Source: Gemmatimonadota bacterium
Lineage (GTDB): Bacteria; Gemmatimonadota; Gemmatimonadetes; Longimicrobiales; RSA9
Direction: 5' to 3'
Length of the DNA stretch: 64,000 bases
NCBI GenBank assembly: GCA_040905425.1
Contig: JBBDRO010000032.1
Location: forward strand, 93,730 to 157,729
Part shown: positions 4,777 to 53,327 of the stretch, piece after piece
How positions within the stretch are numbered: the stretch's first letter is position 1
How the letters are laid out: each line of letters opens with the position of its first letter
The notes under the pieces: model-generated
Seen by the model: the letters and a program-made list of their open reading frames with translations, nothing else
Databases searched by the model: none
Told to the model about the DNA's origin: nothing
Position numbers and translations under genes: made by a program

Positions 4777-4792
4777 ACGCGGTGGTACACCG

Positions 4793-5521: not shown

Positions 5522-5610
5522 CGATGCCTCGCTGGTGAACGGGGAGAACGAGCCGGTGGAACACTAGTAGCGGTATGGCGGCGCAGCAATCACATAACCG
5601 GAGGAGGAGC

Positions 5611-6339: not shown

Positions 6340-6354
6340 GAGGCGGAGGCACCC

Positions 6355-36830: not shown

Positions 36831-36872
36831 AACGCCGCGTTCCACGCTACCGAATCGTCATGATCGCATGGG

Positions 36873-37709: not shown

Positions 37710-37713
37710 GAAC

Positions 37714-38925
37714 ATGGAGGCGGCGGAAAGGCTTAGTGTGAAACAGCACTTCGATGTCGATTGCGTGGTCGTGGGCGGCTCGGCCTCGGGGCTCCGGGTG
37801 GCCGCGCTGCTGGCCGCGGGCGGTGCCCGCGTGCAGGTACTGGAGCGGCGGGCGGTCATCGGGGATCTGGAGCGCTCCTGGATCGTGACCGACGCCCTGA
37901 ATCCGGTGCTGGGCTACGACGCCGGCCCGGCCGTGGTCCATCGCACCGGCGTCATGCGGGTGCACGCTGCGGGGCGCCACGCGGACGTGCCGCTCCCCCG
38001 GGCGGACCTGATCGTGGAGCGCGCCCGCATGCTCCCGCTCCTGCGCGCCCGGGCCGAGGCGGCTGGAGCCGACATCCGGACGAACGCACGGGTAACCGGC
38101 ACGGTGCCGGCCGTTGGTGGCTACCGCGTGGAGGTGGAGGGCGGCACGGCGCCGATCCTGACCCGTCACCTGGTGGGTGCGGACGGGGTAAGCAGCGGCG
38201 TGGCCCGCGCGTTAGGTGCGCGGCCGAACCAGGCCGTGCCGGTTGTCCAGGCGCGGGTCCGTCTGCCCGCGGACTTGGACCCGGACGTCACCCACGTCTG
38301 GTTTCAGACACGGCGCACGCGCTTCTTCTACTGGCTGATTCCGGAATCCCCGGAAACGGCCGTGGTGGGGCTCATTGCCAACGGTGCGGGTCAGACCCGG
38401 GGCCCGCTCGACGCGTTCCTGGTCGAGGAGGGTTTCCAGCCGCTGGAGTACCAGGGGGCCATGATCCCGTTGCATCGGCCGCTGCGTCGCATTTCGTGGC
38501 GGCACGGCCGTGCCCGTGCGTTGCTCGTGGGAGACGCAGCCGCGCACGTGAAGGTGACCACGGTGGGCGGACTCGTGTCGGGTCTGTGGGGCGCCAACGC
38601 GGCCGCTCGGGCCCTGCTGGATGGTAAGTCCTACGGGCGTGAGTTGCGCGGCCTGCACGCGGAACTACACCTGCACGACCTCATGCGTTGGGCCCTGGAT
38701 CGCTTCACGGATGCGGATTACGGCCGGCTCGTGGACGCCATACCGGGACGGCTGGCGGACGCGCTGGGCAGCCACAACCGGGACAGTGTGGCAAGCGCGA
38801 AGTGGCATATCCTGAGCGCGCGTCCCGGGGTGCTGCTCCTGGCCGCACGCGCGCTGCTGCGCTTACCACGTGGTAACCATGAAGCCCCGCGGGGGTACCC
38901 ACTGGCACTCGAAGCGGGAGATTGA
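37714..38925 (+). CDS. FAD-dependent oxidoreductase (geranylgeranyl reductase-like)
   Basis: VVVGGSASG, VGADGVSS and LLVGDAAAHVKVTTVGG motifs. Confidence 0.8.
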   Translation: MEAAERLSVKQHFDVDCVVVGGSASGLRVAALLAAGGARVQVLERRAVIGDLERSWIVTDALNPVLGYDAGPAVVHRTGVMRVHAAGRHADVPLPRADLIVERARMLPLLRARAEAAGADIRTNARVTGTVPAVGGYRVEVEGGTAPILTRHLVGADGVSSGVARALGARPNQAVPVVQARVRLPADLDPDVTHVWFQTRRTRFFYWLIPESPETAVVGLIANGAGQTRGPLDAFLVEEGFQPLEYQGAMIPLHRPLRRISWRHGRARALLVGDAAAHVKVTTVGGLVSGLWGANAAARALLDGKSYGRELRGLHAELHLHDLMRWALDRFTDADYGRLVDAIPGRLADALGSHNRDSVASAKWHILSARPGVLLLAARALLRLPRGNHEAPRGYPLALEAGD

Positions 38926-39632
38926 CCATGACGGTTCGGGCCTGGATCCTGGGAGCCACCACGGCCGTCTGGCTCGTGGCCGCTGCCGGCGCGCCGCCGG
39001 TCGCCGGTCAGGTGACCACTCCGATCGCGCCGAATCCGGGCCTGGCCGAGAATTACGTCATCGGGGTGGGCAACGTGCTCCGCCTGGTGTTGCCCGACCG
39101 TGGCGCTTCGTACAGCGGTGACTACGTGGTCGAGGAGGACGGCATGGTCTACCTGCCGCCCTTCGGTGCCGTGGAGGTCGTGGGCCTGACGCTCCCGGAA
39201 TTGCGGGAGCGCCTGCGGACCGATTACCGAGCCCACTTTTCCAACGATCCCGCCGTGGTGGTCACGGTTATGGCCTATTTCATGGCGGCGGTGATGGGTG
39301 AGGTGGCCCAGCCTGGAAACTACCAGCTTCCCGCCGGCTCCACGTCGCTGCAGGCGGTCGCCGCCGCGGGCGGGTTCCGCGACAACGCCAATGAGCGCGG
39401 GACCTACCTGCTGCGCGGTCAGCAGCGCATCGAGCTGGGCGGCATGCCGGCGGACGATGACATGGACACCGAATCCGCCGCCTCGGTGGTGGCGGCGCTC
39501 GGCGCGCACGTGCTGAGTTCGGGGGATGCCGTGGTGGTGCCCCGGGCCAGTTTCACGTGGCTGACGGCAGGCAATCTGTTTACGCTGGCGCAATTCCTGG
39601 TGAGCGTCGTCACCCTGATACGGCTCTTCTGA
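38922..39632 (+). CDS. Polysaccharide export protein (Wza/OPX-like, with SLBB domain)
   Basis: Signal peptide. YVIGVGNVL..V.EDG...LP..G.V.V.GLTL.EL and V.GEV..PG.Y...A.A.AGG motifs. Confidence 0.85.
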   Translation: MTMTVRAWILGATTAVWLVAAAGAPPVAGQVTTPIAPNPGLAENYVIGVGNVLRLVLPDRGASYSGDYVVEEDGMVYLPPFGAVEVVGLTLPELRERLRTDYRAHFSNDPAVVVTVMAYFMAAVMGEVAQPGNYQLPAGSTSLQAVAAAGGFRDNANERGTYLLRGQQRIELGGMPADDDMDTESAASVVAALGAHVLSSGDAVVVPRASFTWLTAGNLFTLAQFLVSVVTLIRLF

Positions 39633-39648
39633 GCACGGGACAGTGGCC

Positions 39649-41997
39649 ATGACGAACCTGAACGGGCCTCCAGCCGGACCGGTACTGCCGGCGTCCGATG
39701 GCCCTGCCGCGCCACCGCGGGTGCGCGAGCATCTGCATGTCCTCAGGCGGCGCTGGTGGATCGTGGCGCTCGTGGCCGTGGCGCTCGTGGCGGGGTCCTG
39801 GTGGCGGCAGCGGGGGCAGGTGCCGCACTACCAGGCCGTGGCATCGGTGAAGACCTCTCCGTACGCGGGTGATTTTCTCAGTGGCGGTTATGCGGCTTGG
39901 TTGGCCAGTGATCCGGCCCAGCTGGCCACACAGGTGCGCATCATCCGCACCCAGGGCGTCCTCGCGCCTGTCGTGGATTCCCTGGGACTGCGCTTTCAGG
40001 TGGAGGGATCCGAATACCAGTTCCACGACGTAGTGGATCGTGCACTCGTGGCGCCGGGCGCACCATCGCAGGGCTATCAGTTGACTTCCGAGCAGGGCCT
40101 GATCGTGTTGCAGGAGCGGGGCACCGGGCGGACGGTGGACGTAGCCTCGGCCCATGTGCTGATCGGTCCCGGGCTGACCCTGTTCCTGAACCCGGACTTC
40201 ACTCCGCCGCAGCCGGTGGCAGTGGCGGTTGTCAGCGCCGACGCGGCGCTCGGGAGGCTGCGCGGCGGCCTGGATGCCTCCCTGGCCCGCAACAGCGTCC
40301 TCATCGACATCGCGTACACGTCGCCCGACTCCATCATGGCGGCGCGCGTGGCCCAGCAGGTGGCCGAGCAGTATCGGTGGCACGCCGGAGGAGAGCTGCG
40401 CCGGAAGGCTCAGGAAACGCTGGACCTGGTGCGCGCCCAACGTGCCGAGTTGGAAGGCACGATGAGCGAGCGGCTCACCGGCGGGTCGGGCGGCAGTTCC
40501 GTCGCGTCGATCTTCGAGCAGAATCTCATGGGCATCGGGGACGCGGAGGCGTCGGCCCGTACGTACGCGGGGCAGGCGGCGATCGTGAGCAGAGCGGTGG
40601 GCATCTATGAGAACACGGGCAACATCGCCGTCCTGACCGCGCTCGGCGAGTTAGTGCCCGGCGCCAGCAGCCTCTACGACCGCCTTGCCGTCCTGCAGCG
40701 GGACCGTCAGCAGGCCATCGAGGATCGCGGTCCGGGCCCGGCCGTGGCCACGTACGACACGCTCATCGTTGCCGCGCGCGATCAGCTGGCCGATCAGGCG
40801 GCGCAGCGGCTGCGTGTGCTCGAGCAGCAGGAGCAAGCGGCTGTGGCCGAGGCCATTCGGTTGCGGCGCGAACAGGACGCGCTCCGTCCCCAGGTGGCCG
40901 TCTCGCAGGGCGTGGACCGGGAGTTGCTGGCGCTCCAGGAGCGGCAGCGCATGCTCTACGAGGAGGAGTTTGAGGCGGAGGTCGAGGCGGCCATCGAGGG
41001 TAGCCCGGTCGAGATCGTCCAACCAGCCGTAGTACCCACGGTGCCGCTGCCCCAGCGTCGCACGCGGACCCTGCTCCTGTCGCTCGTGCTGGGGCTGGCG
41101 CTCGGCATGCTCGCCGCCTTGCTGCTGGAACAGCTCGACACCCGGGTGCGGGACCCGGAGGACGTGCAGCGGTCCGCGGGGGTCGGCGTGATCGGCTTGA
41201 TCCCCGCGCTGCGCGAATCGTCCGGGGGGCGGCCGCTGGCGCTCTCCCAGGCGGAGCAGCAGACGGCCGGTGCGGAAGCATTCCGCAAGCTGCGCACGAA
41301 CCTGCGCTTCATCCGCGCGGAGCGGCCGCAGGTGGTGGCCGTCACCAGCGCGGGCCCGCACGAGGGCAAGAGCGTGCTCTCCGCGAACCTTGCTCTTGCG
41401 CTCGTGCAGCAGCGCTCCCGGGTGCTCCTGGTGGACGGGGACCTGCGCCGTCCGGTGCAGCACACGATCTTCGGACTGAAGCGTGACCCGGGGCTGTCGG
41501 ACGTGCTGGTGGGCATCCTGCCGCCCACCCAGGCCATTCGCAAGGACGTGCAGATCCCCGGGCTCTACGTCATGCCCTGCGGCACCGAGGCGCCGAATCC
41601 GTCGGAACTACTGGGCAGCGAGGAGTTCGTGAATCTACTCAACCAGATGCGCAAGCATTTCGACACCATCATCCTGGACACACCGCCCGTGAACCTGGTG
41701 AGTGACGCCGCCATCGTATCCACGGTGGCCGATGGCACGCTGGTGGTGGTGGACGCCGGCCGCACGGATCGGCACGTGCTGGCCAGTGCCGTGAACGAAT
41801 TGCGGCAGGCGCGGGCCACCCTGCTGGGGGTGGTGCTGAACCGGGTCGACAGCCGGTCGGCCTATGGATACGGATACGGACGCTTCGGACGCTATTATCG
41901 CTCGGGGTACTACAAGACCGAATCCGCGGCCAACGGGGACCGGGAGTGGCGGGAGACGCTCGACTCGCTGTGGCAACAGGTCTCCCCCTACGTCTGA
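39649..41997 (+). CDS. Polysaccharide co-polymerase / BY tyrosine kinase (Wzc-like)
   Basis: Two TM helices and a coiled coil. EAFRKLRTN, TSAGPHEGKS, LVDGDLRRP and DTPP motifs. C-terminal Tyr cluster YGYGYG..YY..YY. Confidence 0.93.
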   Translation: MTNLNGPPAGPVLPASDGPAAPPRVREHLHVLRRRWWIVALVAVALVAGSWWRQRGQVPHYQAVASVKTSPYAGDFLSGGYAAWLASDPAQLATQVRIIRTQGVLAPVVDSLGLRFQVEGSEYQFHDVVDRALVAPGAPSQGYQLTSEQGLIVLQERGTGRTVDVASAHVLIGPGLTLFLNPDFTPPQPVAVAVVSADAALGRLRGGLDASLARNSVLIDIAYTSPDSIMAARVAQQVAEQYRWHAGGELRRKAQETLDLVRAQRAELEGTMSERLTGGSGGSSVASIFEQNLMGIGDAEASARTYAGQAAIVSRAVGIYENTGNIAVLTALGELVPGASSLYDRLAVLQRDRQQAIEDRGPGPAVATYDTLIVAARDQLADQAAQRLRVLEQQEQAAVAEAIRLRREQDALRPQVAVSQGVDRELLALQERQRMLYEEEFEAEVEAAIEGSPVEIVQPAVVPTVPLPQRRTRTLLLSLVLGLALGMLAALLLEQLDTRVRDPEDVQRSAGVGVIGLIPALRESSGGRPLALSQAEQQTAGAEAFRKLRTNLRFIRAERPQVVAVTSAGPHEGKSVLSANLALALVQQRSRVLLVDGDLRRPVQHTIFGLKRDPGLSDVLVGILPPTQAIRKDVQIPGLYVMPCGTEAPNPSELLGSEEFVNLLNQMRKHFDTIILDTPPVNLVSDAAIVSTVADGTLVVVDAGRTDRHVLASAVNELRQARATLLGVVLNRVDSRSAYGYGYGRFGRYYRSGYYKTESAANGDREWRETLDSLWQQVSPYV

Positions 41998-42004
41998 GGT
42001 CGGC

Positions 42005-42295
42005 GTGCTGCGCGTGAGCGACGATTGTGTGGTCCGGGCCGCCCCGACGCAGGTATCGGCCGATCTCGAGGGGGAGGCGGCCGTGCTGGACACGCTGAGC
42101 GGCGTCTACTGGGGTCTGGACGAGGTGGGCGCGGCCGTCTGGCGGCATCTGCGCGAGCCCGTCAGTGTGCTCCGCCTGCGCGATGCCCTGCTGAGCGAAT
42201 TCAACGTGGACCGTGCAGCGTGCGAGCGAGATCTGCTCGGCTTCCTGATGGAACTGCGGGAGGCGGGGCTGCTCGAAGTGACCACGCTGGGTTGA
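42005..42295 (+). CDS. RiPP recognition element (PqqD family), lasso peptide B1
   Basis: 96 aa: 'SADLEGEAAVLD...GVYWGLDEVGAAVW..L....SV..L...L..EF.V.....E.DL..FL.EL...GLL'. GAGG RBS 7 bp after the wzc stop. Confidence 0.92.
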   Translation: MLRVSDDCVVRAAPTQVSADLEGEAAVLDTLSGVYWGLDEVGAAVWRHLREPVSVLRLRDALLSEFNVDRAACERDLLGFLMELREAGLLEVTTLG

Positions 42296-42305
42296 ACGGC
42301 CAGTC

Positions 42306-43310
42306 TCACCCCTCCAGGAACGCCACCAGGGGGTGGTCCGGCTGACTGCGGGTCGGCTGTCCGAACCCCGCGGCGAGCAATAGCTCGGCCACGGTCCCCG
42401 TCTGCCACTCCGCCGCCTGCAGGGCGAGTACCCCACCCGGCTGGAGGTACTCCGCGGCCCGCGGAATGAAACCCCGCAGCAACGCCAGGCCGTCCTGACC
42501 GCCTCCGCTCATGGTCTCCGCCGGCGCGAGCCAGAGGCGGCCACGGGCACGTTCCGCCGCCAGTAACACGGGTGGGAGCCAGGGCAGGTTGGCCGCGATC
42601 AGGTCCACCGTTCCAGCAAGCTCCCGGGGCAGCGGCTCCAGCAAAGACCCCCGCAGGAAGACGGCCCGCTGCAGGTCGAGTCGTCGTGCGTTGGCGCGGG
42701 CGGCCCGGCATGCGCGCGCGGAGGTGTCCGTGCCCCAGACCCGGGCGCGTGGCCGGTAACGCGCCAGCGCCAGGGCCACCGCCCCGCCGCCCGTCCCCCC
42801 GTCCACGGCGCGGGTCTCCCTGTCCGGATCCAGGTGGGCGAGCGCCGTCTTTGCCAGCAGTTCCGTGGTGGGGTTGGGCGCGAAGACGCCGGGCGGGATG
42901 ATCAGGTCAAGGTCCATGAAATGTACGCTGCGCCGGCGTTGCCCGGCCAGGCCAGCACGCAGCAGGGCCGCGATATGGTGGAGGCCATACTGCGCGCGGG
43001 CGGCCCATGGCGCCCCTACACCGATGGGTATCAGCTCGAGCGGCACGCCCTCCCTGATGAGGGCGGCGTCGGCCGGGTCCGCTGAGGGCTGCCAGCCCGC
43101 GGCGCGCAACGCCGCCCGGGCGGGGAGCAGCGCCGCCACCGCCACCTCCACGCGAATCTTCTCCGGATCCTCGGGCGTACGCGCTTCCACCCCCGCGGCG
43201 CGCAGGGCAGCGGCGGCCACCCTCCGCTCGGCACGAACGCGGAGCTGCCACGCCGCCCGCAATCGTGGCAGCGAGAAGCCGGAAGATTCCGGGGAGGCGG
43301 TGTGGGTCAT
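42306..43310 (-). CDS. PrmC/HemK-like SAM methyltransferase with atypical N-terminal domain
   Basis: GVFAPNPTTELL, VDGGTGGGAVALALA, GTDTS, ANLPW (an NPPY variant) and GG.DGL motifs. Confidence 0.85.
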   Translation of the reverse strand: MTHTASPESSGFSLPRLRAAWQLRVRAERRVAAAALRAAGVEARTPEDPEKIRVEVAVAALLPARAALRAAGWQPSADPADAALIREGVPLELIPIGVGAPWAARAQYGLHHIAALLRAGLAGQRRRSVHFMDLDLIIPPGVFAPNPTTELLAKTALAHLDPDRETRAVDGGTGGGAVALALARYRPRARVWGTDTSARACRAARANARRLDLQRAVFLRGSLLEPLPRELAGTVDLIAANLPWLPPVLLAAERARGRLWLAPAETMSGGGQDGLALLRGFIPRAAEYLQPGGVLALQAAEWQTGTVAELLLAAGFGQPTRSQPDHPLVAFLEG

Positions 43311-43371
43311 GATCGGCCAAGGAGCTCGGGTGGCGTTGACCTGAGCGGGCATTTCAAGCTACCGTCCATGC

Positions 43372-43824
43372 ATGCCCTCGCGCACCCCACCCCGCGCCGC
43401 CGAAAGGTGGCCGTTGCGCCGCCTGCTGGCACTGCCACGGATCGAGCGGCGGCTGCTGCTGCGCGCTGCGTGCGCACTATTCCTGGCCCGACGCGCGCTC
43501 CACCCGGTTCGTCGGCGTACGCCATCCCTCCTGGAAACGCGACCGGTGGTGTCCGGTAGGGTGGCCGGTGTCGAACCCGTGGCCGTGGCACTTGCGGTGA
43601 GCCGCGCCGGCCGTTATCTGCCGGGCGAGTGGACCTGCCTCGAGCAGGCGCTGGCGGGGCGCACCCTGCTTGCGGCGTTTGGCAGATCTTCCCGGGTGCG
43701 GCTCGGAGCCGCACGCTCCGCCCCCGGCGGGCAGCGCTTCCATGCCTGGCTCGAATGTGATGGGGTCGTGGTTCTGGGCGGCGATCAGCCGCGCGCCTAC
43801 GTGCCGCTGGACGCACGGCCCTGA
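43372..43824 (+). CDS. Lasso peptide leader peptidase B2 (transglutaminase-like)
   Basis: TCLEQALA (catalytic Cys), VRLG and FHAWLECDG (catalytic His) motifs. 150 aa. Confidence 0.92.
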   Translation: MPSRTPPRAAERWPLRRLLALPRIERRLLLRAACALFLARRALHPVRRRTPSLLETRPVVSGRVAGVEPVAVALAVSRAGRYLPGEWTCLEQALAGRTLLAAFGRSSRVRLGAARSAPGGQRFHAWLECDGVVVLGGDQPRAYVPLDARP

Positions 43825-43859
43825 GGGCCCTCCCTGCGCGCCACGCCACCGGCGCGCCC

Positions 43860-45008
43860 GTGAATCCCACCGATCACCTGCCCCTGCTCGCGGCCGCCGC
43901 GGCCCCGGGTGCCGCCGCGCGGGTGCGCTTCCACCGCCTGGCCGGGTCACTGGATCCGGAGCAGTGGCCTGCGGTGCTCGATGCCGCGGAGCGCCACCGG
44001 CTGCGTCCGCTGCTCCACCGTGCGCTCCAACGTACGACCGGCCTGGTCCCTTTTGCGGCGCAGGAATCCCTGGCCGAGGCGGTGCGCCACGACGCCGTCC
44101 TGGCGCTGGCCGCGCTCCGCGAGGGCCGGGCGGCGGCCGCGCTCCTGGCAGAGGCGGGAATCGCCTCGCTGGCGCTGAAGGGGCCGGTGCTGGCGTGCGC
44201 CCTCCACGGGGACCCTGCGCTGCGTGCCGCCGGGGACTTCGACCTGCTGGTGGCGCGGCGCCATGCCGCCCGCGCCGGCGCGCTGCTGGCCGACGGGGGC
44301 TGGGCGTGCGCCGTTCACCTGACGCCCCGGATGGCCGCCTCCCACTTGCGCACGCAGCATGAGCTGCCGTTTCGCCGGGGCGCGGCGCCCGTCCTGGAAC
44401 TCCACTGGGCCGTGGCCCAGCGGCACTGGGCGGTGCCGCTCGCGGCCGAGGCACTCCTGACGCGTGCACAGCCGGCGGGCCCGGGAGAAGCCTTCGGCCA
44501 GCCGAGCACGGAGGACCGGCTCCTGCTGGCGTGTATCCACGGGGCGCGGCACCGCTTCGCCACGCTGGACCTGCTCGCGGACGTGGCGGGCTGCGTGGCC
44601 CTCGGCGGCATCGACTGGAACAGGCTGTGGGCGGAAGCGGAGCGCGCGGGGGTGCGGCGCATTGTGGCCGTGGCGCTGGCCGTGGCGGAGCGCACCATGG
44701 ACGCCCGCCTGCCTGCCGCGGCCGGACGGCCGTTGTCGATAGATCGGACCGGAGGCCTGCTGGCCGCGCGGGCCGCGGAGCGCCTCGAGCGGGGCGTCGG
44801 CCCCGTGACCGGGTGGCGCGGGTTACGGGCCGAGTTGCTACTGCGCGAGCGCCGCGCGGACCGGGTACGCCGCCTGGGGCGGCTCGCGCTCACCCCTACC
44901 GCCGGGGACTGGGGCTGGGTGCGCCTGCCGGACCCCCTCCATCCGCTCTACCACGCGCTCCGTCCGGTCCGCCTGCTGGGTGTGGCCTGGGGTCGTCTGC
45001 GCAGCTGA
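43860..45008 (+). CDS. Nucleotidyltransferase (NTP_transf_5 family), lasso-cluster associated
   Basis: LALKGPVL, R..GDFDLLV, LELHW and C.HG.RH....L..L.D motifs. Confidence 0.88.
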   Translation: MNPTDHLPLLAAAAAPGAAARVRFHRLAGSLDPEQWPAVLDAAERHRLRPLLHRALQRTTGLVPFAAQESLAEAVRHDAVLALAALREGRAAAALLAEAGIASLALKGPVLACALHGDPALRAAGDFDLLVARRHAARAGALLADGGWACAVHLTPRMAASHLRTQHELPFRRGAAPVLELHWAVAQRHWAVPLAAEALLTRAQPAGPGEAFGQPSTEDRLLLACIHGARHRFATLDLLADVAGCVALGGIDWNRLWAEAERAGVRRIVAVALAVAERTMDARLPAAAGRPLSIDRTGGLLAARAAERLERGVGPVTGWRGLRAELLLRERRADRVRRLGRLALTPTAGDWGWVRLPDPLHPLYHALRPVRLLGVAWGRLRS

Positions 45009-45016
45009 GGACGCGC

Positions 45017-45967
45017 TCAGCGCTCTGCCGGCACCTCCACCAACGCCGCCACCCGCGCGGCAAAGCCCGGCAGCAACTCCAGTCCCCGGGGCGGCCGGGC
45101 GTGCCACACGGGAATCCGTGCCGCGCAGGCGGCGGCGGCCAGTTGACGGCGCAGGCGGTCCGGGTCCGTGACCACCCGGTTGAAGGTGGCCGCGAGGAGT
45201 GCGCGGACCGCCTGCCCCCCCCGGACCCGCTCGGGCGGGCCGCCCCTGTCCCCGGGGAGAGCGAGTGTCACCCATGCCCGGAGCGGCACGTCCGTCCGCA
45301 CGGCGCGGGGCACGGCGTACGCCCGCTTGGCGCTGTCCGGATGGAGGAGGACGCTGGCGCTTGACGGCAGTCCCAGAAGCAGCTCCGCAGCCTCCGGAAA
45401 CAGCTTCAAGCGCGCGGGTCCGGCGCGGGCCATCCGGCTGCCGGGGGCCAGCACCAGGACATCATCCGTCACGAGCCGGCCGCCGGCGGCCAGGAGCGCC
45501 GCGGCCAGCGTGGACTTGCCCACGCCCGGGGGGCCGGTGAGCGCCACGGCTCCCGCAGGCAGTGCCACCACCGTGGCGTGATAGGGCTCCAGGCCGCGTG
45601 CCACGAGGGAGAAGGACAGGAGCTGGGCATAGAGGTAGCCCGCCAGGGCGGCAGGCGCCGCGGGGGCCAGCGGGGCCACGCGGAGGCGGGCTCCGGCCGG
45701 GTCCGTGCGCGCCAGCAGCAGGTCGCGCCAGCGGAGCAGGAAGCCACCGTCCGCCGTGTCCTGCCAGGCCGCGTCCCCCATGACCCGCCACGCATCGTTC
45801 GTCGGCTGCAACCCCGCCGCCGGCACGGCGCGGATCACCACGTCCGGAGGGCCCTCCTCGAAAGCGGCGTCGGGGAAGGGCCACGGGCTCTCCACGGAGA
45901 GGCCGTAGACGCGGAAGCGGTGGGCGGCTGAAGGCGGACGGGGTGCGGACGTTGCGGGACGCCTCAG
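45017..45967 (-). CDS. HPr-kinase-like Ser/Thr kinase (lasso tailoring)
   Basis: FRVYGL N-terminus, YHATVV, Walker A GPPGVGKST, LVTDD. Start uncertain (CTG 45967 or GTG 46078). Confidence 0.85.
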   Translation of the reverse strand: MRRPATSAPRPPSAAHRFRVYGLSVESPWPFPDAAFEEGPPDVVIRAVPAAGLQPTNDAWRVMGDAAWQDTADGGFLLRWRDLLLARTDPAGARLRVAPLAPAAPAALAGYLYAQLLSFSLVARGLEPYHATVVALPAGAVALTGPPGVGKSTLAAALLAAGGRLVTDDVLVLAPGSRMARAGPARLKLFPEAAELLLGLPSSASVLLHPDSAKRAYAVPRAVRTDVPLRAWVTLALPGDRGGPPERVRGGQAVRALLAATFNRVVTDPDRLRRQLAAAACAARIPVWHARPPRGLELLPGFAARVAALVEVPAER

Positions 45968-46143
45968 AAGCGCGTGAACCCGCCGCCGGTCTTGGAGGGC
46001 TGCTCCTTGCTGGCGCCGCCCCCGCCGCGGGTGAGTTCCGCCAGGTCCCCCCAGCGCGTCAGGGTCGGCCGGACCCACGGCTTGAGCGGACGCTCCGGGC
46101 CGGGGGATGCCTCACGCGCCGGCGGTTCGGGTGCTTCGGCCAT
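45964..46143 (-). CDS. Lasso peptide precursor (59 aa)
   Basis: MAEAPEPPAREASPGPERPLKPWVRPTLTRWGDLAELTR|GGGGASKEQPSKTGGGFTRF. WxxPxL..xG....T(-2) leader, Gly1 and Glu8. GGAG RBS. Starts 2 bp after the cyclase stop. Confidence 0.9.
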   Translation of the reverse strand: MAEAPEPPAREASPGPERPLKPWVRPTLTRWGDLAELTRGGGGASKEQPSKTGGGFTRF

Positions 46144-46145
46144 GC

Positions 46146-48038
46146 TCACTCCAGGGGATCCGACGTGACGAAGGCGCGCAGCCAGAGCTCCAGGCCCAGG
46201 GCCGCGAGGAGCGGAGCCGCGGCGCGCGTACGTCCAATTTCGCTGGCCGCGTGCAGCCGCGCCAGTTCCGCGTCCAGTCCGGCGGTGTCCAGGTAGCCGG
46301 CCCGCACGGCTGCGCCGTGGCTCAGCAGGCGCGCGAGTGGCTCGGCGGCCCCGGCCATGGCTGCATGAAACAGACCGGTGGCGTTGCCCTTGTCGCGGCG
46401 GGCCAGGATGGCGTCGGGCACGATGCCCCGCAGCCCGTCCCGCAGGATGCCCCGGGGGACCCCCTGCGGTGCCGCGGCCGTGCCGGGAAGCCCCGCCAGG
46501 AAGACCAGCAGGTCCTCGTCGGCGAAGGGCGGCAGGAGCGTGAGGCCGTGCGCGGCGCATCCCTTGACGCCCCATTCCATACGCAGCGTGTTGAAGGGCA
46601 GTCGCACCGCTTCCAGGACGGCTGCGCCGTGGGAGCTGATGCCGCGTACGGCCGCCGCTTGCCGGTCGCCGGTGCCCGCTGGCGCGGCCGCATCCGGCGG
46701 CGTCGGGCTGGTCCCATGCGGCAGCCGTGCCGCGCGGAGGCGCTCACCCCAGAGGGAGCTGCCCTTCCGCCGCTGTCGGAGCGGTGCCAGCAGTGCCCGG
46801 CGCGCCCGCAGCAGACGTCCGGGCAGCAGCTGGCGCGCCAGTTCCTCCAGTGCGGCCCGATGCAGCACGGCGGCGGGGACGTCCGCGTGCCAGCGCGGCA
46901 TCTCCAACAGGTGCCGCGCCAGGGTGGGAAGCCGCCCGGCGCGGAGCAGTTCGGCCAGGTAGGCGGGCGGATTCGGAAACAGCACCTGGTCCCCGAGTCC
47001 GCCGGACAGGATGATTGCCGCCCCGTGCTCGCGGGCCGCCGTGAGCGCACGGGTGGCCGGGCCGGGGGCAAAGCCCACTGCCGGTGCCTCGCTCTCCAGG
47101 ACCTCGTCCATGGACTCGGCCGGAAAGCCGCCCGGCTCCGCCGGCACGCGTATCACCGCCTCACCCCAGCGCTCCTCCAGGACCCGGAGCCAGGCTGTCT
47201 CATCGGCCGCCGAGCCGTCCGCGGTGCCGTGATAGACGCCGAAGGCCGGCGGGAAGCGCGCAGGATCGCGGGCGTGCAGCATGCGCGCCACGCTGTAGAC
47301 GGCGGACGAGTCGATGCCGCCGGAGAGCAACACGGCCACCGGTGCGGGACCCACCAGGCGGCGGGCGACCGCCGCTACGAAACGATCGCGGAACGAGATG
47401 GCCGCGGCTGCCGGATCCAGTTGCAGGGCCGGGACCTGAAACGCCCGCGCCCGATCGATGTTCAGGCCCCGTTCGTGGGCCAGCAGATAGTGGCCGGGGG
47501 GCAGCGCCCGGACCTCCTTCAGGAACGTGACCGAGGCCGGGAAGGTACGCGTGCCCAGGAAGAGTTCGGCCAGCGCGGGGTCATCCGGCGTGCGGTCCAC
47601 CGCGCCGTGCGCCAGCACGGCCCGCACGGTCGTGGCGAACACCACGCCTCCCGGTAGCTCCGCCCAGTAGAGCGGCCGGGTGCCGACCAGGTCTCTGGCC
47701 AGCAGCAGCCTACCGTCGGCGATCACGGCCAGGGCATAATCACCGCGCAGCTCCGCGGCGAGCGTCGCGCCGCTCGTGCGCAGCGCGGCGGGCAGGGAGT
47801 CGGCCGCGCCCGCCAGGCGGCCCGAGAGTGCCCACGCCTCCCCTGGCTGAGCCGTCCCTACGGATGACGGTCCGTTGCTCCAACCGCTCCACGGACCGGG
47901 GGCAGTGGCCAGGCCCGCACCGGGCAGCAAGGCGATGCCGGCTGCCGATCCGCCTGGCAGAGCCGCGGCCATGCGCTCGAGTGCGGCGGGGTCCACGGCC
48001 CGGCCGTGGCCGTACCAGATGCCTGCGAATGCGCTCAA
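46146..48038 (-). CDS. Lasso peptide cyclase (asparagine synthetase-like, C protein)
   Basis: Starts MSAFAGI with no Ntn Cys. RDLVGTRPLY, LLSGGIDSS, LSGGLGDQ, PF.D..L and R.ILR....G.VPD.I..R.DK motifs. Adjacent to the precursor. Confidence 0.9.
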   Translation of the reverse strand: MSAFAGIWYGHGRAVDPAALERMAAALPGGSAAGIALLPGAGLATAPGPWSGWSNGPSSVGTAQPGEAWALSGRLAGAADSLPAALRTSGATLAAELRGDYALAVIADGRLLLARDLVGTRPLYWAELPGGVVFATTVRAVLAHGAVDRTPDDPALAELFLGTRTFPASVTFLKEVRALPPGHYLLAHERGLNIDRARAFQVPALQLDPAAAAISFRDRFVAAVARRLVGPAPVAVLLSGGIDSSAVYSVARMLHARDPARFPPAFGVYHGTADGSAADETAWLRVLEERWGEAVIRVPAEPGGFPAESMDEVLESEAPAVGFAPGPATRALTAAREHGAAIILSGGLGDQVLFPNPPAYLAELLRAGRLPTLARHLLEMPRWHADVPAAVLHRAALEELARQLLPGRLLRARRALLAPLRQRRKGSSLWGERLRAARLPHGTSPTPPDAAAPAGTGDRQAAAVRGISSHGAAVLEAVRLPFNTLRMEWGVKGCAAHGLTLLPPFADEDLLVFLAGLPGTAAAPQGVPRGILRDGLRGIVPDAILARRDKGNATGLFHAAMAGAAEPLARLLSHGAAVRAGYLDTAGLDAELARLHAASEIGRTRAAAPLLAALGLELWLRAFVTSDPLE

Positions 48039-48270
48039 GGGCCGTGGGGTTCGGGGGCACGTCTGCCCTGCGGCAGCAGCGTGCCGCAAGGGTACGCCGG
48101 GTACGCCCGCCGCGAAAGCGTCGGGCAGGCGGCAGGTGGCGGAAATCCGGCAATACGGGGTCCGCCGCCGGTGGACGCGCGTCGGGTGCCGACGTACGGA
48201 AGCGCCGCCCGGTCCTCCGGACGACGCCCCGTTCTCCCACGGCGGCCGTGGCCGTCGCTCCCCGGGAGGG

Positions 48271-48990
48271 TTACTGGATAATGAGCGGCAGGATGGTGGA
48301 GCGGGCCTGCTCCAGAGTGATGGAGCTTGGAGCAGTCTCCACGACCGGCTCGCCGTTTCCGGCCAGGCCAACGCCAATCAGGAAGGCAGCGGCCACCAGC
48401 GCTGTGGCTGCGACTGCCTGCACGCGGCGATAGCGAGGGCGGGGGCGGCGCGGGCTCGCCTCCATCAGCAGCACCACCGGACGCGGCGGCTCGGCACGTA
48501 ACGCGGCCGCCCCGAAGGTGGCCACCGACCACGACTCATCGACCCGCTCACCGGTCAGCGGCTCGTCCTCCGAGGGCAGCATCGTGACGCAGCCGGCCGT
48601 GGTCAGGTCGCGGCCGCGGGTGATGCCCGCCACCAGCGCGTCGAGCTCGAAGAGCTGGAACGGCTTGAGCAGGTATCCGGCCGCACCCTGCTCGAGCGCG
48701 CGGCGCGCGGTGGCCTCGTCCGTGTCCCCGGTGACGAAGACCACCGGCTGTTCCGGAACCTGCTCGTGAATGAAGCGTGCGAGTGCCACCCCTGATTCCC
48801 CGGGCAGGTGGATATCCGTCACCACGAGGTCGAAGCGGGGGGTGTGGTCCGGAAAGGAACGCTGCGCCGTGGCCGCGTCGCCTGCCTCAGCCACATCGAA
48901 GCCGTTGCGGACGAAATGGCGCACGAGCAACCGGCGCACGGCCGTATCGTCCTCCACGATGAGAATGCGGCGTTGCCGTGACTCGATCAT
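48271..48990 (-). CDS. Response regulator: receiver domain plus C-terminal TM segment
   Basis: ILIVEDD, DLVVTDIHLPGESG, VTG and YLLKPF motifs, then VAATALVAAAFLIGVGLAG. Confidence 0.85.
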   Translation of the reverse strand: MIESRQRRILIVEDDTAVRRLLVRHFVRNGFDVAEAGDAATAQRSFPDHTPRFDLVVTDIHLPGESGVALARFIHEQVPEQPVVFVTGDTDEATARRALEQGAAGYLLKPFQLFELDALVAGITRGRDLTTAGCVTMLPSEDEPLTGERVDESWSVATFGAAALRAEPPRPVVLLMEASPRRPRPRYRRVQAVAATALVAAAFLIGVGLAGNGEPVVETAPSSITLEQARSTILPLIIQ

Positions 48991-49055
48991 GCTGACACTC
49001 TTCCCGTGGAAGGGGATGGATGCCGCCGGAAGCGGCGCGATTGATACGTATCTAT

Positions 49056-49071
49056 TGCCAGGTGCGTGCCC
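49056..49071 (-). promoter_or_regulatory. Putative sigma54 promoter
   Basis: GGGCACGCACCTGGCA (GG-N10-GC, GGCACG intact), ~65 bp upstream of the response regulator. Confidence 0.5.
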
Positions 49072-49255
49072 GAGCTCACCGATGCTTCGGAGCCGTTGCG
49101 GCGCAGGGGTTATCATCGAATCCTCGCTGCCCGGCGGCGGCCCCGGGTATGTTCAAAATCCGGACGTCCCCGGTAGTATGCAGCGTGGAGATCAGTGAGG
49201 ACGCCACGAAATAGACACATGTCCGATAACCGGATACTGTAGGGAATCCATACAC

Positions 49256-49942
49256 ATGCACATCGTCGCCACCGATCTGCTCACGTGTCCGCGTTGCGGA
49301 CCTTCGTTCGGCCTCATCCTGCTGGCCGACAGGGTCAGCGAGCGGCGCGTGCTCGCAGGTATGCTGGGCTGCTCGAACTGCAGGGAGCGCTGGCCCATCA
49401 CCGGCGGTCTGGCGCGGCTGGGTACGGGGGTCGCGCCATGGGCGGAAGGTGCGCGGGGGGACGCGCCGGGCCGCCCGCCCGGGCACGCGCGGCCCCGCGT
49501 CCCTCTGGATGGCGACGCTCACGCCGGCGGCGCCGATGCGGACTCCGGCGGCACCTGGGCGGCGCTCATGGGTGTGACCCAGGGGCCGGCCTTCGTCCTG
49601 GTGGCGGGCGGGGCCGTGGCGGTGGCCGGCGCCGTCGCGGACCTGGTCGAGCGATTGGAGGTGCTGGCGGTGGGACCCGGCGCGGCGGACCTGCCCGAGC
49701 GCGCCGGGGTGAGTCGGTTGGAGGCCGGCGCCCGCCTGCCACTGGCCACAGGGAAGATTGCGGCCGCCACGCTGACCGGGCCCGCGGCGGATGCCTGGCT
49801 CGAGGAAGCCTCCCGCGCCCTGCGGCCCACCGGCCGGCTGGTGCTCTCCCCTGTGCCCCTGGATGCCGATGCCCGGCTGGCGGCCGCAGGCTGCAGGGTC
49901 ATGGCGCGCGAAGCCACCACGTTGATCGCACTCCGGGAGTAA
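49256..49942 (+). CDS. Trm112-like zinc-binding domain plus degenerate methyltransferase-like domain
   Basis: DLLTCPRCG...GMLGCSNCRERWPITGG, then RLPLA...LEEASRALRPTGRLVL. Confidence 0.65.
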   Translation: MHIVATDLLTCPRCGPSFGLILLADRVSERRVLAGMLGCSNCRERWPITGGLARLGTGVAPWAEGARGDAPGRPPGHARPRVPLDGDAHAGGADADSGGTWAALMGVTQGPAFVLVAGGAVAVAGAVADLVERLEVLAVGPGAADLPERAGVSRLEAGARLPLATGKIAAATLTGPAADAWLEEASRALRPTGRLVLSPVPLDADARLAAAGCRVMAREATTLIALRE

Positions 49943-50109
49943 GCGGGTCGCGAGGCGTCGCGGGCCGTTCTCCGCACGGCGTGAGTGGCGCGCGCCGCAT
50001 TGCGTCCGGCCTCCGGCGGCGTCTATGTTGTGCCGCTGATGCCGAGTCGTGCTCGCGCGGGGGCGCCCGCCTGCACGGCCGACCTTCGTTCCCGCCTGCG
50101 ACCAGGTGC

Positions 50110-50541
50110 ATGGGGCTTTTCAAGCGACTGTTCAAGGACGAAAAGGACGGCGTCGACTACTACCGGGAGGGCCTCGAGCTCCTCAAGGTGGGTAAGTACC
50201 ACGAGGCGCTCACGTCCTTCCGCCTGGCGTTGAGGGAAGCGCCCGACGACCAGGCCGTGCTGCAACAGATCGCCATCACCTACACCCGCATCGGCATGAC
50301 CGACGAGGCCGCCCGCACCTACCGCCAGGTGCTGGCGCGCACGCCTGAGGCGGCGGGTGCCCATTACGGACTGGCATTCCTGCTCCTCCGTGAGGGAAGA
50401 GACGAAGACGCCAGGCAGCATCTGGAAACGTTTCTGGCCGCACCCCCGGAAGGTCCCGAGGCCGCGCGCCACATAGCGCATGCCCGCGAGACCCTGGCTG
50501 AACTGCGGGGTGGGACAGCGCCGCCGGTGGAGAACACGTGA
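50110..50541 (+). CDS. Tetratricopeptide repeat protein
   Basis: About 3 TPR motifs (YYREGLELL..GKYHEAL; AHYGLAFLL). Confidence 0.85.
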   Translation: MGLFKRLFKDEKDGVDYYREGLELLKVGKYHEALTSFRLALREAPDDQAVLQQIAITYTRIGMTDEAARTYRQVLARTPEAAGAHYGLAFLLLREGRDEDARQHLETFLAAPPEGPEAARHIAHARETLAELRGGTAPPVENT

Positions 50542-50584
50542 AGCAGCCCTCTTTCGGCAGCGTGCCCCTCGTGGAGGCGCACTG

Positions 50585-50995
50585 ATGGCGGACGTGGATG
50601 TGGTCCTGCACTGGACGGGTGAGGGGCTACGGTTCCGGGGCGGTCGCGCGGAGGGGCCCCAGGTCACGCTGGATGGCGATGGCAATCAGGGGCCGTCCCC
50701 CATGACCACGCTGCTCCTCGGTCTGGCCGGCTGCATGTCCGCGGACATCGTGGACATCGCACAGAAATCCCGGGCGGAGTTCGCCACCCTCGAGGCGCAC
50801 CTGGAGGGAGATCGTGCCACAGAGCCGCCCAGGCGCTACACCGCCGTGCGAATGCGTTTCGTGGCGGGAGGCGTGAGCCAGGCCGACGAGTCGAAGCTGC
50901 GCCGCGCGCTCGAGCTGTCCACCGCGACGTACTGCAGCGTGCTCCATTCCCTGCGCCCTGACGTCAAGGTCACCACGGAGTTGGAGCTGACCTGA
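50585..50995 (+). CDS. OsmC family protein
   Basis: GPSPMTTLLLGLAGC and YCSVLHSL motifs. Confidence 0.9.
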   Translation: MADVDVVLHWTGEGLRFRGGRAEGPQVTLDGDGNQGPSPMTTLLLGLAGCMSADIVDIAQKSRAEFATLEAHLEGDRATEPPRRYTAVRMRFVAGGVSQADESKLRRALELSTATYCSVLHSLRPDVKVTTELELT

Positions 50996-51112
50996 GGCCG
51001 TCACGCTGACGGCTGGTGGCGGCGCGCCGGTCGGGGTGCCGCTGCCACCGCCGGTGCGCCGGCAGCCGGAGGGGCCCCGACCGCCCCGCCTCACACGCAA
51101 CCGCGAGGTAGC

Positions 51113-52975
51113 ATGTCGATCCCCGCAGACGGTCGCCGCCATGCGTCCAATCCGGCAGAGGTGCCGGTGGGGACGCTCGTGGAGCTGTTCTTCGACGCCG
51201 TGGATGCCCACGCCGCGCCGGACGCGCTACGCTGGCGTGAGGCGGACGCCTGGCGGCAGATGGGCCACGCCGAGTTGGAGGCGAACGTGCGGGCCCTGGC
51301 CGGCGCGCTGGAGGGCATGGGGGTCGCCCGCGGCGATCGTGTGGCGCTCCTCTCGGAGAGCCGGCCCGAATGGGCGCTCACCGACTACGCGTTGCTGTGC
51401 GCCGGCCTGCTCACCGTCCCGGTCTACGCCACGCTGCCGGCGGGCCAGGTGGCCGGCATCGTGGAGCACTCGGGCGCACGCGTGCTGTTCGTCTCCACCG
51501 GTGAGCAACTGGAGAAGGCCCTGGCGGTGCGCCGCAAGGTGCCCACGCTGGAGACGATCGTGGTCTTCGAGGACGCCTATGCCGGCGCGGAGGGCGTACG
51601 CACGCTGCGCGAGCTACTGGCCGAGGGCGGGGAGCGAAACAAGGATGCCGCCGCATTCCGCGAGCGGGCGCGCGCCGCCCGGCCCGAGGACGTGGCCACC
51701 CTCATCTACACATCGGGGACCACAGGCAAGCCGAAGGGCGTGATGCTCACGCATGCCAACCTGTACGGCAATGCCGTGGCCGCGGCGAACCTGGATCTGA
51801 CCGATCCCGGCGACGTGGCGCTCAGCTTCCTGCCGCTCTCCCACGTGCTGCAGCGGATGGTGGACTACTGGTTCTTCTCCAGCGGCGTGAGCATTGCCTA
51901 CGTGCCCGACCTGGACGAACTCTCCCGCGCGTTCAACGAGGTGCGACCCACCGTGGCGGTGGCCGTCCCGCGCGTCTACGAGAAGGTGTATGCCCGCATC
52001 CTGGCCGAGAAGGGACTCAAGCGGCCGATCGTCCTCTGGGCCAGGGGCGTTGCGCTGGCCTGGGCCGACGAGACGCTGGCGGGGCGCCGGCCCTCCGCGG
52101 GCCTGCGGCTGCAGCATGCGCTGGCGGACCGCCTGGTTTTTGCCAAGGTGCGCGCGCGCCTGGGCGGACGGATCCGCTTCTTCGTGTCCGGCGGCGGGCC
52201 GCTGGCGCCGCAGGTGGCGCGCTTCTTCTACGGGGCGGGCGTGCTCATCCTCGAGGGCTACGGTCTCACGGAGACGTCACCCGTGACGAACGTGAACCTG
52301 CCGGGTGCGATGCGGATCGGTACGGTCGGTCGGGCCTTTCCCGGTACGGAGATCCGGATCGCCGACGATGGCGAAATCCTGATCCGTGGACCCCAGGTGA
52401 TGAAGGGTTATTTTGACGACCCGGAGGCCACGGCGGCGGTCATCGATGCCGAGGGCTGGTTCAGCACGGGGGATATCGGTGAGCTGGACGCGGATGGCTT
52501 CCTGCGCATCACTGATCGGAAGAAGGACATCCTGGTCACGGCGGGCGGCAAGAACGTGGCGCCGCAGCCGGTGCAGAACGCCGCCAAGGAAAGCCCCTTT
52601 GTGGCCGAGGCCGTGATGCTGGGTGACCGCCGGCCTTACCCGATTCTGCTGGTCGTGCCGAACTTCGATACGCTGGAGGCGTGGGCCCGCCACAAGGGGT
52701 TCTCCTGGAAGGACCAGGAGGCGCTGGCGGCGTTGCCGGAGGTGCGCGCCAAGCTGGAGCGGGAGGTATCGGCGCGGCTGCAGGACTTTGCCCGCTACGA
52801 GCAGCCCAAGAAGGTCCTGCCCATCGGCCGGGACCTGAGTCTCGAAGAGGGTGAGATCACCCCCACCCTCAAGGTCAAGCGCGCGGTGGTGGAGGAGCGC
52901 TTCAGGGACCGCATTCAGGCGCTCTACGACGAGCCGCAACGGGACCCGGGGGACGGAACGGAGGCAGGGGGGTAA
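51113..52975 (+). CDS. Long-chain fatty acid--CoA ligase
   Basis: YTSGTTGKPKG, GYGLTET, TGDIG, DRKKD and TPTLKVKR motifs. Confidence 0.93.
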   Translation: MSIPADGRRHASNPAEVPVGTLVELFFDAVDAHAAPDALRWREADAWRQMGHAELEANVRALAGALEGMGVARGDRVALLSESRPEWALTDYALLCAGLLTVPVYATLPAGQVAGIVEHSGARVLFVSTGEQLEKALAVRRKVPTLETIVVFEDAYAGAEGVRTLRELLAEGGERNKDAAAFRERARAARPEDVATLIYTSGTTGKPKGVMLTHANLYGNAVAAANLDLTDPGDVALSFLPLSHVLQRMVDYWFFSSGVSIAYVPDLDELSRAFNEVRPTVAVAVPRVYEKVYARILAEKGLKRPIVLWARGVALAWADETLAGRRPSAGLRLQHALADRLVFAKVRARLGGRIRFFVSGGGPLAPQVARFFYGAGVLILEGYGLTETSPVTNVNLPGAMRIGTVGRAFPGTEIRIADDGEILIRGPQVMKGYFDDPEATAAVIDAEGWFSTGDIGELDADGFLRITDRKKDILVTAGGKNVAPQPVQNAAKESPFVAEAVMLGDRRPYPILLVVPNFDTLEAWARHKGFSWKDQEALAALPEVRAKLEREVSARLQDFARYEQPKKVLPIGRDLSLEEGEITPTLKVKRAVVEERFRDRIQALYDEPQRDPGDGTEAGG

Positions 52976-53313
52976 TGGAGCATTCCGCCACCCATGTGGT
53001 GCTGATGACCGCGCCCGACGAGGACACGGCGGTGGGCATCGTGCGGACCGTGGTGGAGGAGCGCCTGGCGGCATGTGGCAACGTGCTGCCCGGTGTACGC
53101 TCCATCTACCGATGGCAGGAAGAGGTGCAGGAAGACCGGGAAGTACTCGTTGTCTTCAAGACGGTGGAGCGGGCGGTGCCGCGGCTGGTGGCGCGCATCG
53201 AGGAACTACATCCGTACGACGTTCCCGAGGCGCTGGCACTGCAGGTGCACGCAGGGGCCGCGGCCTACCTCCGGTGGGTGGCCGCCAACGCCGACGGCCA
53301 GGCGCCGTCCTAG
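52975..53313 (+). CDS. cutA: Divalent-cation tolerance protein CutA
   Basis: EERLAACGN, SIYRW and LHPYDVPE motifs. Confidence 0.92.
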   Translation: MEHSATHVVLMTAPDEDTAVGIVRTVVEERLAACGNVLPGVRSIYRWQEEVQEDREVLVVFKTVERAVPRLVARIEELHPYDVPEALALQVHAGAAAYLRWVAANADGQAPS

Positions 53314-53327
53314 AGGAAAATAGCAGC

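Follow-up and report, generated by a model that had tools for sequence, protein, structure and literature searches.

Positions 45964-46143 of the window, by which we mean the whole 64,000-nt stretch of Gemmatimonadota DNA analysed here, most probably hold a genuine lasso-peptide precursor gene on the minus strand (a probability of about 0.85), and its product would be matured along a pathway that we infer from the homology of the neighbouring enzymes. Translation of these positions yields a 59-residue peptide, MAEAPEPPAREASPGPERPLKPWVRPTLTRWGDLAELTRGGGGASKEQPSKTGGGFTRF, followed by a stop codon. On the minus strand the order is a Shine-Dalgarno-like GGAG, the stop codon TGA of a putative lasso cyclase gene (46148-46146), the dinucleotide GC and the ATG start codon at 46143. 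A 59-amino-acid (aa) gene with this ribosome-binding site (RBS), starting 2 nt after the cyclase stop, had been claimed in an earlier note on this DNA, and direct reading of the sequence bears the claim out. The coordinates of the features are given in Table 1.

The precursor gene and its relatives

As the earlier note had also observed, the precursor frame appears in the mechanical list of open reading frames (ORFs) only as the tail of a 203-aa ORF. This ORF (45964-46575, minus strand) overlaps the cyclase gene at its 3′ end but is read in a different frame. Neither the extension of this ORF nor three ORFs on the opposite strand matched any Pfam family. The word hidden, which the note used for the gene, is apt for the longest-ORF view; it does not hold for a public protein collection, where the same 59-aa protein is already called as a gene.

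Residues 23-39 of the leader read WxxPxLx3Gx5T-R, with Thr at position -2 of the first core Gly. The motif [Y/W]xxPx[L/V/I] bound by the RiPP recognition element (RRE; RiPP, ribosomally synthesised and post-translationally modified peptide) and the Thr(-2) of lasso precursors are both present. The [Y/W]xxPx leader motif is defined in PMC13381572 and PMC10368454, and Thr(-2) is described as a critical recognition element in PMC10368454. The leader was matched by the NCBIfam model NF033521 (lasso_leader_L3) with 23 bits at a curated cut-off of 19, and with 24.2 bits in a scan of the genome. The core begins with Gly1-Gly4, and an acidic residue falls within positions 7-9. This residue, Glu8, is on the predicted core the only possible isopeptide acceptor, because it is the sole acidic residue there. 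Hydroxyl residues are S6, S11, T13 and T18. The precursor contains no Cys, and the core, which can form no disulfides, falls in class II. The monoisotopic mass of the core was computed as 1924.939 Da for the linear and 1906.929 Da for the cyclised form (minus water), in agreement with the value of about 1906.9 Da that had been calculated by hand in the earlier note; the leader pattern, the core boundaries and the class II features given there proved equally sound. The class II lasso reading of the precursor is supported, and every testable element fits it.

Translated in all six frames, the entire 4,120,607-base genome gave two matches to the expression [YWF]xxPxLx3Gx5Tx. Of the two, the precursor alone meets a stop in the next 35 residues and has G/A/S/C at core position 1 with an acidic residue at 7-9. 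The GC contents at codon positions 1, 2 and 3 of the gene are 0.73, 0.69 and 0.88 in a window of 70.5% GC; the third-position value (GC3) is typical of coding sequence, the cyclase and kinase genes having 0.86 and 0.89.

A word-indexed search of 5.8 billion proteins returned two 59-aa homologues, P0002 (86% identical) and P0003 (59%). A peptide encoded at metagenome locus L023 was 85% identical to the precursor, and among 41 related genomes only G016 had a clear precursor homologue (E 7e-7; 45% identity). Together with the window these are the five family sequences; G016 is an unpublished genome and the sole source of the statements made about it. A further metagenome locus, L024, was rejected as a precursor since its reading frame is part of a longer unrelated one. 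Two of the four relatives, L023 and G016, have enough context, and both keep the order cyclase-precursor-kinase, so that the conservation of the ORF beside a homologous cyclase, on which the earlier note had made its claim depend, was found in both. In L023 the cyclase gene (73% identity) is followed by the precursor, the kinase (86%) and an opposed nucleotidyltransferase gene (87%). In G016 the end of the cyclase gene is followed by the precursor, the kinase (40% identity) and, again opposed, a nucleotidyltransferase, with an orthologue of the methyltransferase further on.

RBS, 2-nt spacer, start and stop are identical in L023 and the window. The two precursor genes differ by 6 synonymous and 9 non-synonymous changes, of which codons 25-44, from the motif through G4, hold 2 and 0; the nine replacements lie in the N-terminal part of the leader and at core positions 6, 13 and 16. 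Among the positions that the earlier note had proposed to follow, P, L and Thr(-2) of the leader and G1 and E8 of the core are invariant in 5/5 family sequences, as are the leader Gly, the rest of the G1-G4 run, P-S-K and the T-R-F at the C-terminus; the motif opens with W in three sequences and with Y in two.

A profile built from the five sequences gave 116 matches at E<=1e-3 among 1.84 billion representative proteins. A relaxed leader motif was present in 112 of them, all small proteins, with core Gly1 in 101 and Asp/Glu at position 8 in 95, two counts that are biased upward because the search profile contained these positions. The core starts with GGGG in 38 of the 112, and in 10 it also ends in T-R-[FVAL]; these ten cores are mostly GGGG-x3-[ED]-P...T-R-F. 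Thr was exactly at -2 in 111 of 120 stored small proteins scanned. All ten members looked up came from metagenomes as singletons or pairs, and they were annotated as 'hypothetical protein' or had no name. By these matches, the precursor belongs to a small uncharacterised sub-family that is so far metagenome-only.

Cluster enzymes and the predicted pathway

Table 1. Features of the putative lasso-peptide cluster in the window (positions of the window; - and +, strands).
Feature	Positions	Strand	Basis and remarks
Precursor gene A	45964-46143	-	59 codons plus stop; translation, NF033521, motif statistics, GC3, homologues
Leader	46027-46143	-	Residues 1-39
Core (predicted)	45967-46026	-	Residues 40-59; 20 residues
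GGAG, Shine-Dalgarno-like	46152-46149	-	5 nt before ATG, within the last cyclase codons; direct reading
Putative lasso cyclase C, ~630 aa	46146-48038	-	PF00733 119.9 bits, GATase_7 34.2 bits; SGGxDS at residue 239
HPr-kinase-like peptide kinase K	45017-45967, start uncertain	-	Weak P-loop matches and catalytic motif
PF14907 nucleotidyltransferase N	43860-45008	+	Convergent with K; PF14907 155.7 bits
Leader peptidase B2, transglutaminase-like	43372-43824	+	PF13471 60.5 bits; NF033537 63.6 bits, cut-off 33
PrmC/HemK-like methyltransferase, extra	42306-43352	-	N-terminal domain of ~140 aa; public call starts at 43310 (334 aa)
B1, PqqD-type RRE, 96 aa	42005-42295	+	PF05402 58.6 bits
Response-regulator receiver protein	48271-49116	-	PF00072 84.8 bits; long C-terminal extension; directly upstream of the cyclase gene

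As shown in Table 1, the precursor neighbours genes for an Asn-synthase-like cyclase, a B2 and a PqqD-like B1, as expected of a lasso cluster. The cyclase start TTG at 48038 was chosen because the similarity to L023 begins exactly there in an N-terminal alignment. B1 scored 56.9 bits with NF033536, under the cut-off of 80; its gene starts with GTG at 42005, which has a GAGG 5 nt before it, and 8 nt separate this start from the stop codon of a gene for a Wzc-like tyrosine autokinase. The latter ends a polysaccharide operon (31800-41997, plus strand) that encodes GT1/GT4 and GT2 glycosyltransferases, a Bac_transf priming transferase, a Poly_export/SLBB protein and the Wzz-GNVR-P-loop tyrosine autokinase. 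B1 may be co-transcribed with this operon, since it ends 8 nt upstream on the same strand. Clusters for lasso peptides and for linear polyphosphorylated peptides (LPP) that are embedded in capsule loci of Bacilli have been described (Popov et al., PMC13381572). The response regulator may be a regulator of the cluster. A promoter and terminator scan of 44900-48400 found none of either, and the fold of the precursor-kinase spacer RNA was not structured (z = -0.16).

The kinase gave weak family matches, limited to the P-loop (PF07475 24 bits, TIGR04352 37.7 bits). Residues 121-160 of its 307-aa translation carry the motif H-x14-G-x2-G-x-GKS-x15-DD, which is also found in L023 and G016. In the lasso kinase BsfK, H148, G163, G166, G168, K169, S170, D186 and D187 are reported to matter for catalysis, and the spacing of the kinase motif is identical to that of this essential BsfK motif (PMC10368454). 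In L023 an in-frame TTG (L023:6213) stands where the window has TCA, and the codons of the conserved N-terminal motif R-F-R-V-Y-G-L-S differ synonymously only.

The same genome holds a second lasso locus on contig C93 (about 4236-6839). Its YxxP-leader precursor (NF033521 20 bits) is rich in Trp and Tyr in the ring region and very acidic in the tail; the locus also has a B2 (90.5 bits), a B1 and, upstream, a cyclase-like end, and tblastn found no kinase or nucleotidyltransferase on the contig.

NPPY is the motif of PrmC/HemK methyltransferases. The methyltransferase of the window has N-L-P-W instead. It scored 121.9 bits with TIGR03534 (cut-off 199.1) over residues 142-332 only, so that neither the full-length equivalog match nor the N-terminal release-factor-binding domain of PrmC/HemK was found. 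Its best PDB matches were to HemK, in the catalytic domain only. For the N-terminal ~140 aa, sequence searches gave no match to HemK structures or any solved structure, nor to a Pfam family; BLASTP against the neighbouring nucleotidyltransferase gave nothing (E 2.1), profile comparison with a B1/RRE alignment gave a probability of 0.3%, and the ESM Atlas had no usable match. In the collection of 5.8 billion proteins this domain occurred in two proteins only, the window's own and a 77% relative. The methyltransferase of G016 is a third; it is full-length, 33% identical over 330 residues and encoded near the G016 cluster.

Matches to the methyltransferase were found in 233 of 401 genomes of the phylum. 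Among the matches listed, apart from the window's own gene, nearly all start after query residue 100, in the catalytic domain or shortly ahead of it, and the few longer ones are weak, e.g., in G184 (E 6e-19, residues 44-331); a full-length counterpart was not found in the 400 other phylum genomes searched. We take these matches to be PrmC-like genes. The window's genome has a second match, on contig C100, which we regard as the housekeeping PrmC since it extends over no more than the catalytic domain. The full-length protein is encoded at both sub-family loci that reach that far, the window and G016 (L023 ends earlier), and thus appears to be a dedicated paralogue tied to the sub-family. Its methyl acceptor might be, as a guess from PrmC/HemK chemistry, a side-chain amide or amine, Gln9 or the Lys of P-S-K. 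No report of side-chain N-methylation of lasso peptides was found among the papers listed for PrmC/HemK- or N-methyltransferase-linked cases, and Metanodin (PMC12670498) proved to be unrelated. The methyltransferase and B2 genes are divergent, with 20-60 nt between their possible starts and scant room for two promoters.

All steps of the following pathway are drawn from homology; the gene, the motifs, their conservation and the enzyme genes with intact motifs are direct observations. The 39-residue leader would dock via WxxPxL on the separate B1, and the HPr-kinase-like enzyme would phosphorylate a hydroxyl residue of the linear precursor, at best guess the invariant Thr three residues from the C-terminus and, as second choice, the invariant Ser of P-S-K. 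The PF14907 nucleotidyltransferase would perhaps extend the phosphate, as in pseudomycoidin. B2 would cut after Thr(-2)-Arg(-1), and the cyclase would link the Gly1 amine with the Glu8 side chain, giving a product of 1906.93 Da, when unmodified, in which a 12-residue tail threads an 8-residue ring. The PrmC-like enzyme would perhaps methylate the side-chain nitrogen named above, and the thread would be locked by the tail through F17, R19, F20 and perhaps T18 in modified form. The adducts that the earlier note had proposed to look for, +80, +sugar and +14, match the presence of kinase, nucleotidyltransferase and methyltransferase genes in the predicted cluster.

Modelling of the leader with B1, which the note had also suggested, lends weak support to their binding. 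The predicted B1-precursor complex passed the mark with a score of 0.46, the best of three controls reaching 0.01, a contact agreement of at least 95% and a partner pLDDT of at least 52. Of 157 solved complexes 116 reach the mark, as do 2 of 215 mismatched pairs; with a score of 0.60 or less, it is reached by only 18 of the 157 and by both of the mismatches that pass. The pass may also reflect likeness, because lasso RRE-leader complexes have already been solved.

Kinase homologues were found in 67 of 401 genomes sampled from the phylum. Twenty regions, fetched for the presence of a precursor-like ORF and not a random sample of the phylum, included a cyclase in 15 and a kinase in 16, and a nucleotidyltransferase homologue lies beside the kinase in 13 of the 20 as well as in L023. 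An initial absence of cyclases from the fetched loci was an artefact of tblastn: with default composition-based statistics the window cyclase missed the Asn-synthase-like cyclases of the GC-rich loci L056-L068 and L073, and Pfam (L056) and tblastn without composition statistics recovered them, for the count of 15/20. Seventeen loci with kinase and cyclase, among them the window and G016 (where the contig breaks off within the cyclase), hold 23 precursor-like ORFs. Only 2 of the 23 end in Ser; Thr occurs within the last five residues of 17 and Ser or Thr of 20, and a basic residue adjoins a Ser/Thr within the last ten in 21. This pattern of a Thr near the C-terminus may serve as a lead and not as a result, because there was no kinase-free control set. 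Four other loci (L069, L070, L071 and L074, from genomes G056, G113 and G028) have precursor-like ORFs with C-terminal motifs like the kinase-linked ones; out to about 10 kb, kinase, cyclase, B1 and B2 are all missing, and the kinase lies elsewhere in the genome. These ORFs look like extra precursor copies that would be served in trans.

Doubtful, though worth stating, is the wider proposal that peptides of the form GGGG-x3-E/D...T-R-F make up a distinct, triply tailored lasso family of uncultured bacteria with a Thr-phosphorylating kinase, a plug-building nucleotidyltransferase and a side-chain N-methylating PrmC-derived enzyme. The kinase would target the conserved, basic-flanked Thr near the C-terminus rather than a Ser at the end or in the ring; the phosphate on this Thr would be elaborated by the nucleotidyltransferase into the lower steric plug; and the methyltransferase would use its unique domain for substrate docking and N-methylate the side chain of the core Gln or Lys. 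The proposal draws on the Thr (17/23) and terminal Ser (2/23) counts, and on the full-length methyltransferase, which is encoded beside the lasso genes at both sub-family loci that extend so far and was not found in the 400 other phylum genomes searched.

Several observations weigh against the precursor reading or parts of it. The cyclase scored 131 bits with the NCBIfam lasso-cyclase model NF033535, far under the cut-off of 525, and its assignment therefore rests on the Pfam Asn_synthase match and on context. No ATG, GTG or TTG precedes R-F-R-V-Y-G-L-S in the kinase gene. Its possible starts are GTG 45895, at which the motif is lost, CTG 45967, which overlaps the precursor stop, and GTG 46078, with a 115-nt overlap with the precursor; the gene could therefore be poorly translated or decaying. 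The cluster genes are spread across both strands in four transcription units, and among those examined an exporter gene of any kind, ABC included, was not seen. The sequencing runs listed for 45000-48100 were five DNA runs from two studies, with no RNA run. Of the five family sequences, two are closely related to the window and one is from an unpublished genome, and the profile counts carry the bias stated above. The phospho-acceptor is a guess, because the core ends in Phe and the first-characterised kinases act on a C-terminal Ser (PMC8498205).

Alternative readings of the product

The peptide could be real and processed by B1, B2, the kinase and the nucleotidyltransferase, yet stay linear and phosphorylated or decorated like an LPP, with the Asn-synthase homologue employed otherwise. 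Kinase, nucleotidyltransferase and discrete RRE indeed form the core that LPP clusters conserve, a lasso-like YxxPx motif is present in LPP leaders, and the cluster adjoins a polysaccharide operon like the clusters of Bacilli (all PMC13381572); the low score of the cyclase with NF033535 points the same way. However, the LPP clusters described there use a signal-peptidase-I (SpI)-type peptidase and have no B2 or cyclase (PMC13381572), whereas in the window B2 is above its cut-off, the Asn-synthase homologue ends 2 nt before the precursor, and no SpI-type gene was present among the cluster ORFs scanned. The continuation of the LPP leader, VLxHQxIxFETxxS (PMC13381572), is missing from the precursor leader, and a linear product would need neither the Gly1 (101/112) nor the Glu/Asp8 (95/112) of the relatives. 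Because B2 and cyclase are present and Gly1 and Glu8 are conserved, we regard a linear product as improbable.

Lasso peptides are known with 7-, 8- and 9-residue rings, and four identical Gly follow the cleavage site, among which sequence alone cannot fix the cut. A genuine lasso precursor might accordingly be read in another register, for example cut after Gly1 to leave a 7-residue Gly2-Glu8 ring, the mass being off by at least one Gly. Against such a shift, Thr stands exactly at -2 of the first Gly in all five family members and in 111 of the 120 small proteins scanned, T(-2) being a critical recognition element (PMC10368454), and an acidic residue at position 8 counted from the T(-2) cut occurs in 95 of the 112 relatives, many of which have no Gly run. 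There is little likelihood, in our judgement, of a register other than the one given.

That the ORF is spurious, a chance frame in GC-rich DNA (142 ORFs of at least 40 aa overlap 38000-54000, and high-GC genomes have many spurious ones) or a decayed remnant from which no peptide is made, would accord with the lack of an RNA run and with the kinase lacking a canonical start, a possible hint of decay, but is very unlikely given the model score above the curated cut-off, a motif that occurs twice in the six-frame genome and here 2 nt from a cyclase, the frame, start, stop and RBS kept in L023 at 85% identity with the changes in the recognition motif all synonymous, the distant G016 relative (45%) in the same gene order, and the absence of family matches for the opposite-strand ORFs and the 203-aa extension.

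Comparison with known systems and significance

The cluster resembles the paeninodin/pseudomycoidin clusters of Bacillota, in which split B1/B2 and an Asn-synthase-like cyclase occur together with an HPr-kinase homologue and a PF14907-type nucleotidyltransferase (PMC8498205), and the H / GxxGxGKS / DD motif of the HPr-kinase homologues of paeninodin-like clusters is present here. The leader motif opens with Trp, as it does nearly without exception in paeninodin-like precursors (PMC13381572); three of the five family members have this Trp. Kinases of the paeninodin type act on a C-terminal Ser (PMC8498205), and such an acceptor is lacking from the family, whose cores end in Phe (5/5), and from all but 2 of the 23 kinase-linked precursors of the phylum. 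Unlike the paeninodin type, the cluster has no ABC exporter seen among its genes, carries the extra PrmC-like methyltransferase and is arranged on both strands.

The bsf cluster of Bradymonas sediminis (BsfA/K/B1/B2/N/C/D; PMC10368454) likewise has a kinase and a nucleotidyltransferase, and its precursor too ends in a residue other than Ser. Phosphorylation is thus internal there and, if it takes place, must also be internal in the window cluster. B1 accelerates the phosphorylation of the linear precursor by BsfK (PMC10368454), a model that we have taken over for the window cluster. BsfK phosphorylates the ring Ser3 and the bsf leader has Ile at -2 (PMC10368454), in contrast to Gly1-4 and the canonical Thr(-2) here; the conserved hydroxyl residues of the window family are in the tail (S11, T18). 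The LPP of Bacillota (Popov et al. 2026, PMC13381572) share with the cluster an RRE, a kinase resembling HprK, an NTP transferase and a small precursor with a Y/WxxP leader, and both kinds of cluster adjoin polysaccharide loci. The presence of cyclase and B2 sets the window cluster apart from them.

Peptides of the microcin J25 type have a Gly1-Glu8 ring, an aromatic residue after Glu8 and a C-terminal Tyr-Gly, and are RNA-polymerase inhibitors. The predicted product would share with them the 8-residue Gly1-Glu8 ring, its Gly-richness and class II membership without Cys. It has, however, no aromatic residue after Glu8 and no Tyr-Gly end, its tail being basic, Gly-rich and ending T-R-F, and split B1/B2 and tailoring enzymes replace the proteobacterial ABCD layout. 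A leader recognised by a curated model in a kinase/nucleotidyltransferase lasso cluster is of a well-known kind. What is new is the core sub-family, the uncultured lineage, the pairing of a canonical Thr(-2) leader and a non-Ser C-terminus, and the linked PrmC-like methyltransferase.

The compact scaffolds of lasso peptides resist proteases, and many of these peptides act as antibiotics or inhibit enzymes. To our knowledge, those that have been characterised come almost all from cultured Proteobacteria, Actinobacteria and Bacillota. A survey of Gemmatimonadota gives no more than a count of lasso clusters (29 metagenome-assembled genomes), as far as its available text goes (PMC11316326). The source of the window is an uncultured sediment lineage. 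Nothing in these results alters the existing picture of lasso peptide biosynthesis. The precursor fixes the peptide to seek or to synthesise, one of 20 residues with a Gly1-Glu8 ring and a mass of 1906.93 Da, and the cluster would be a convenient system in which to ask how a lasso kinase selects its site and whether N-methylation of side chains occurs in this class.

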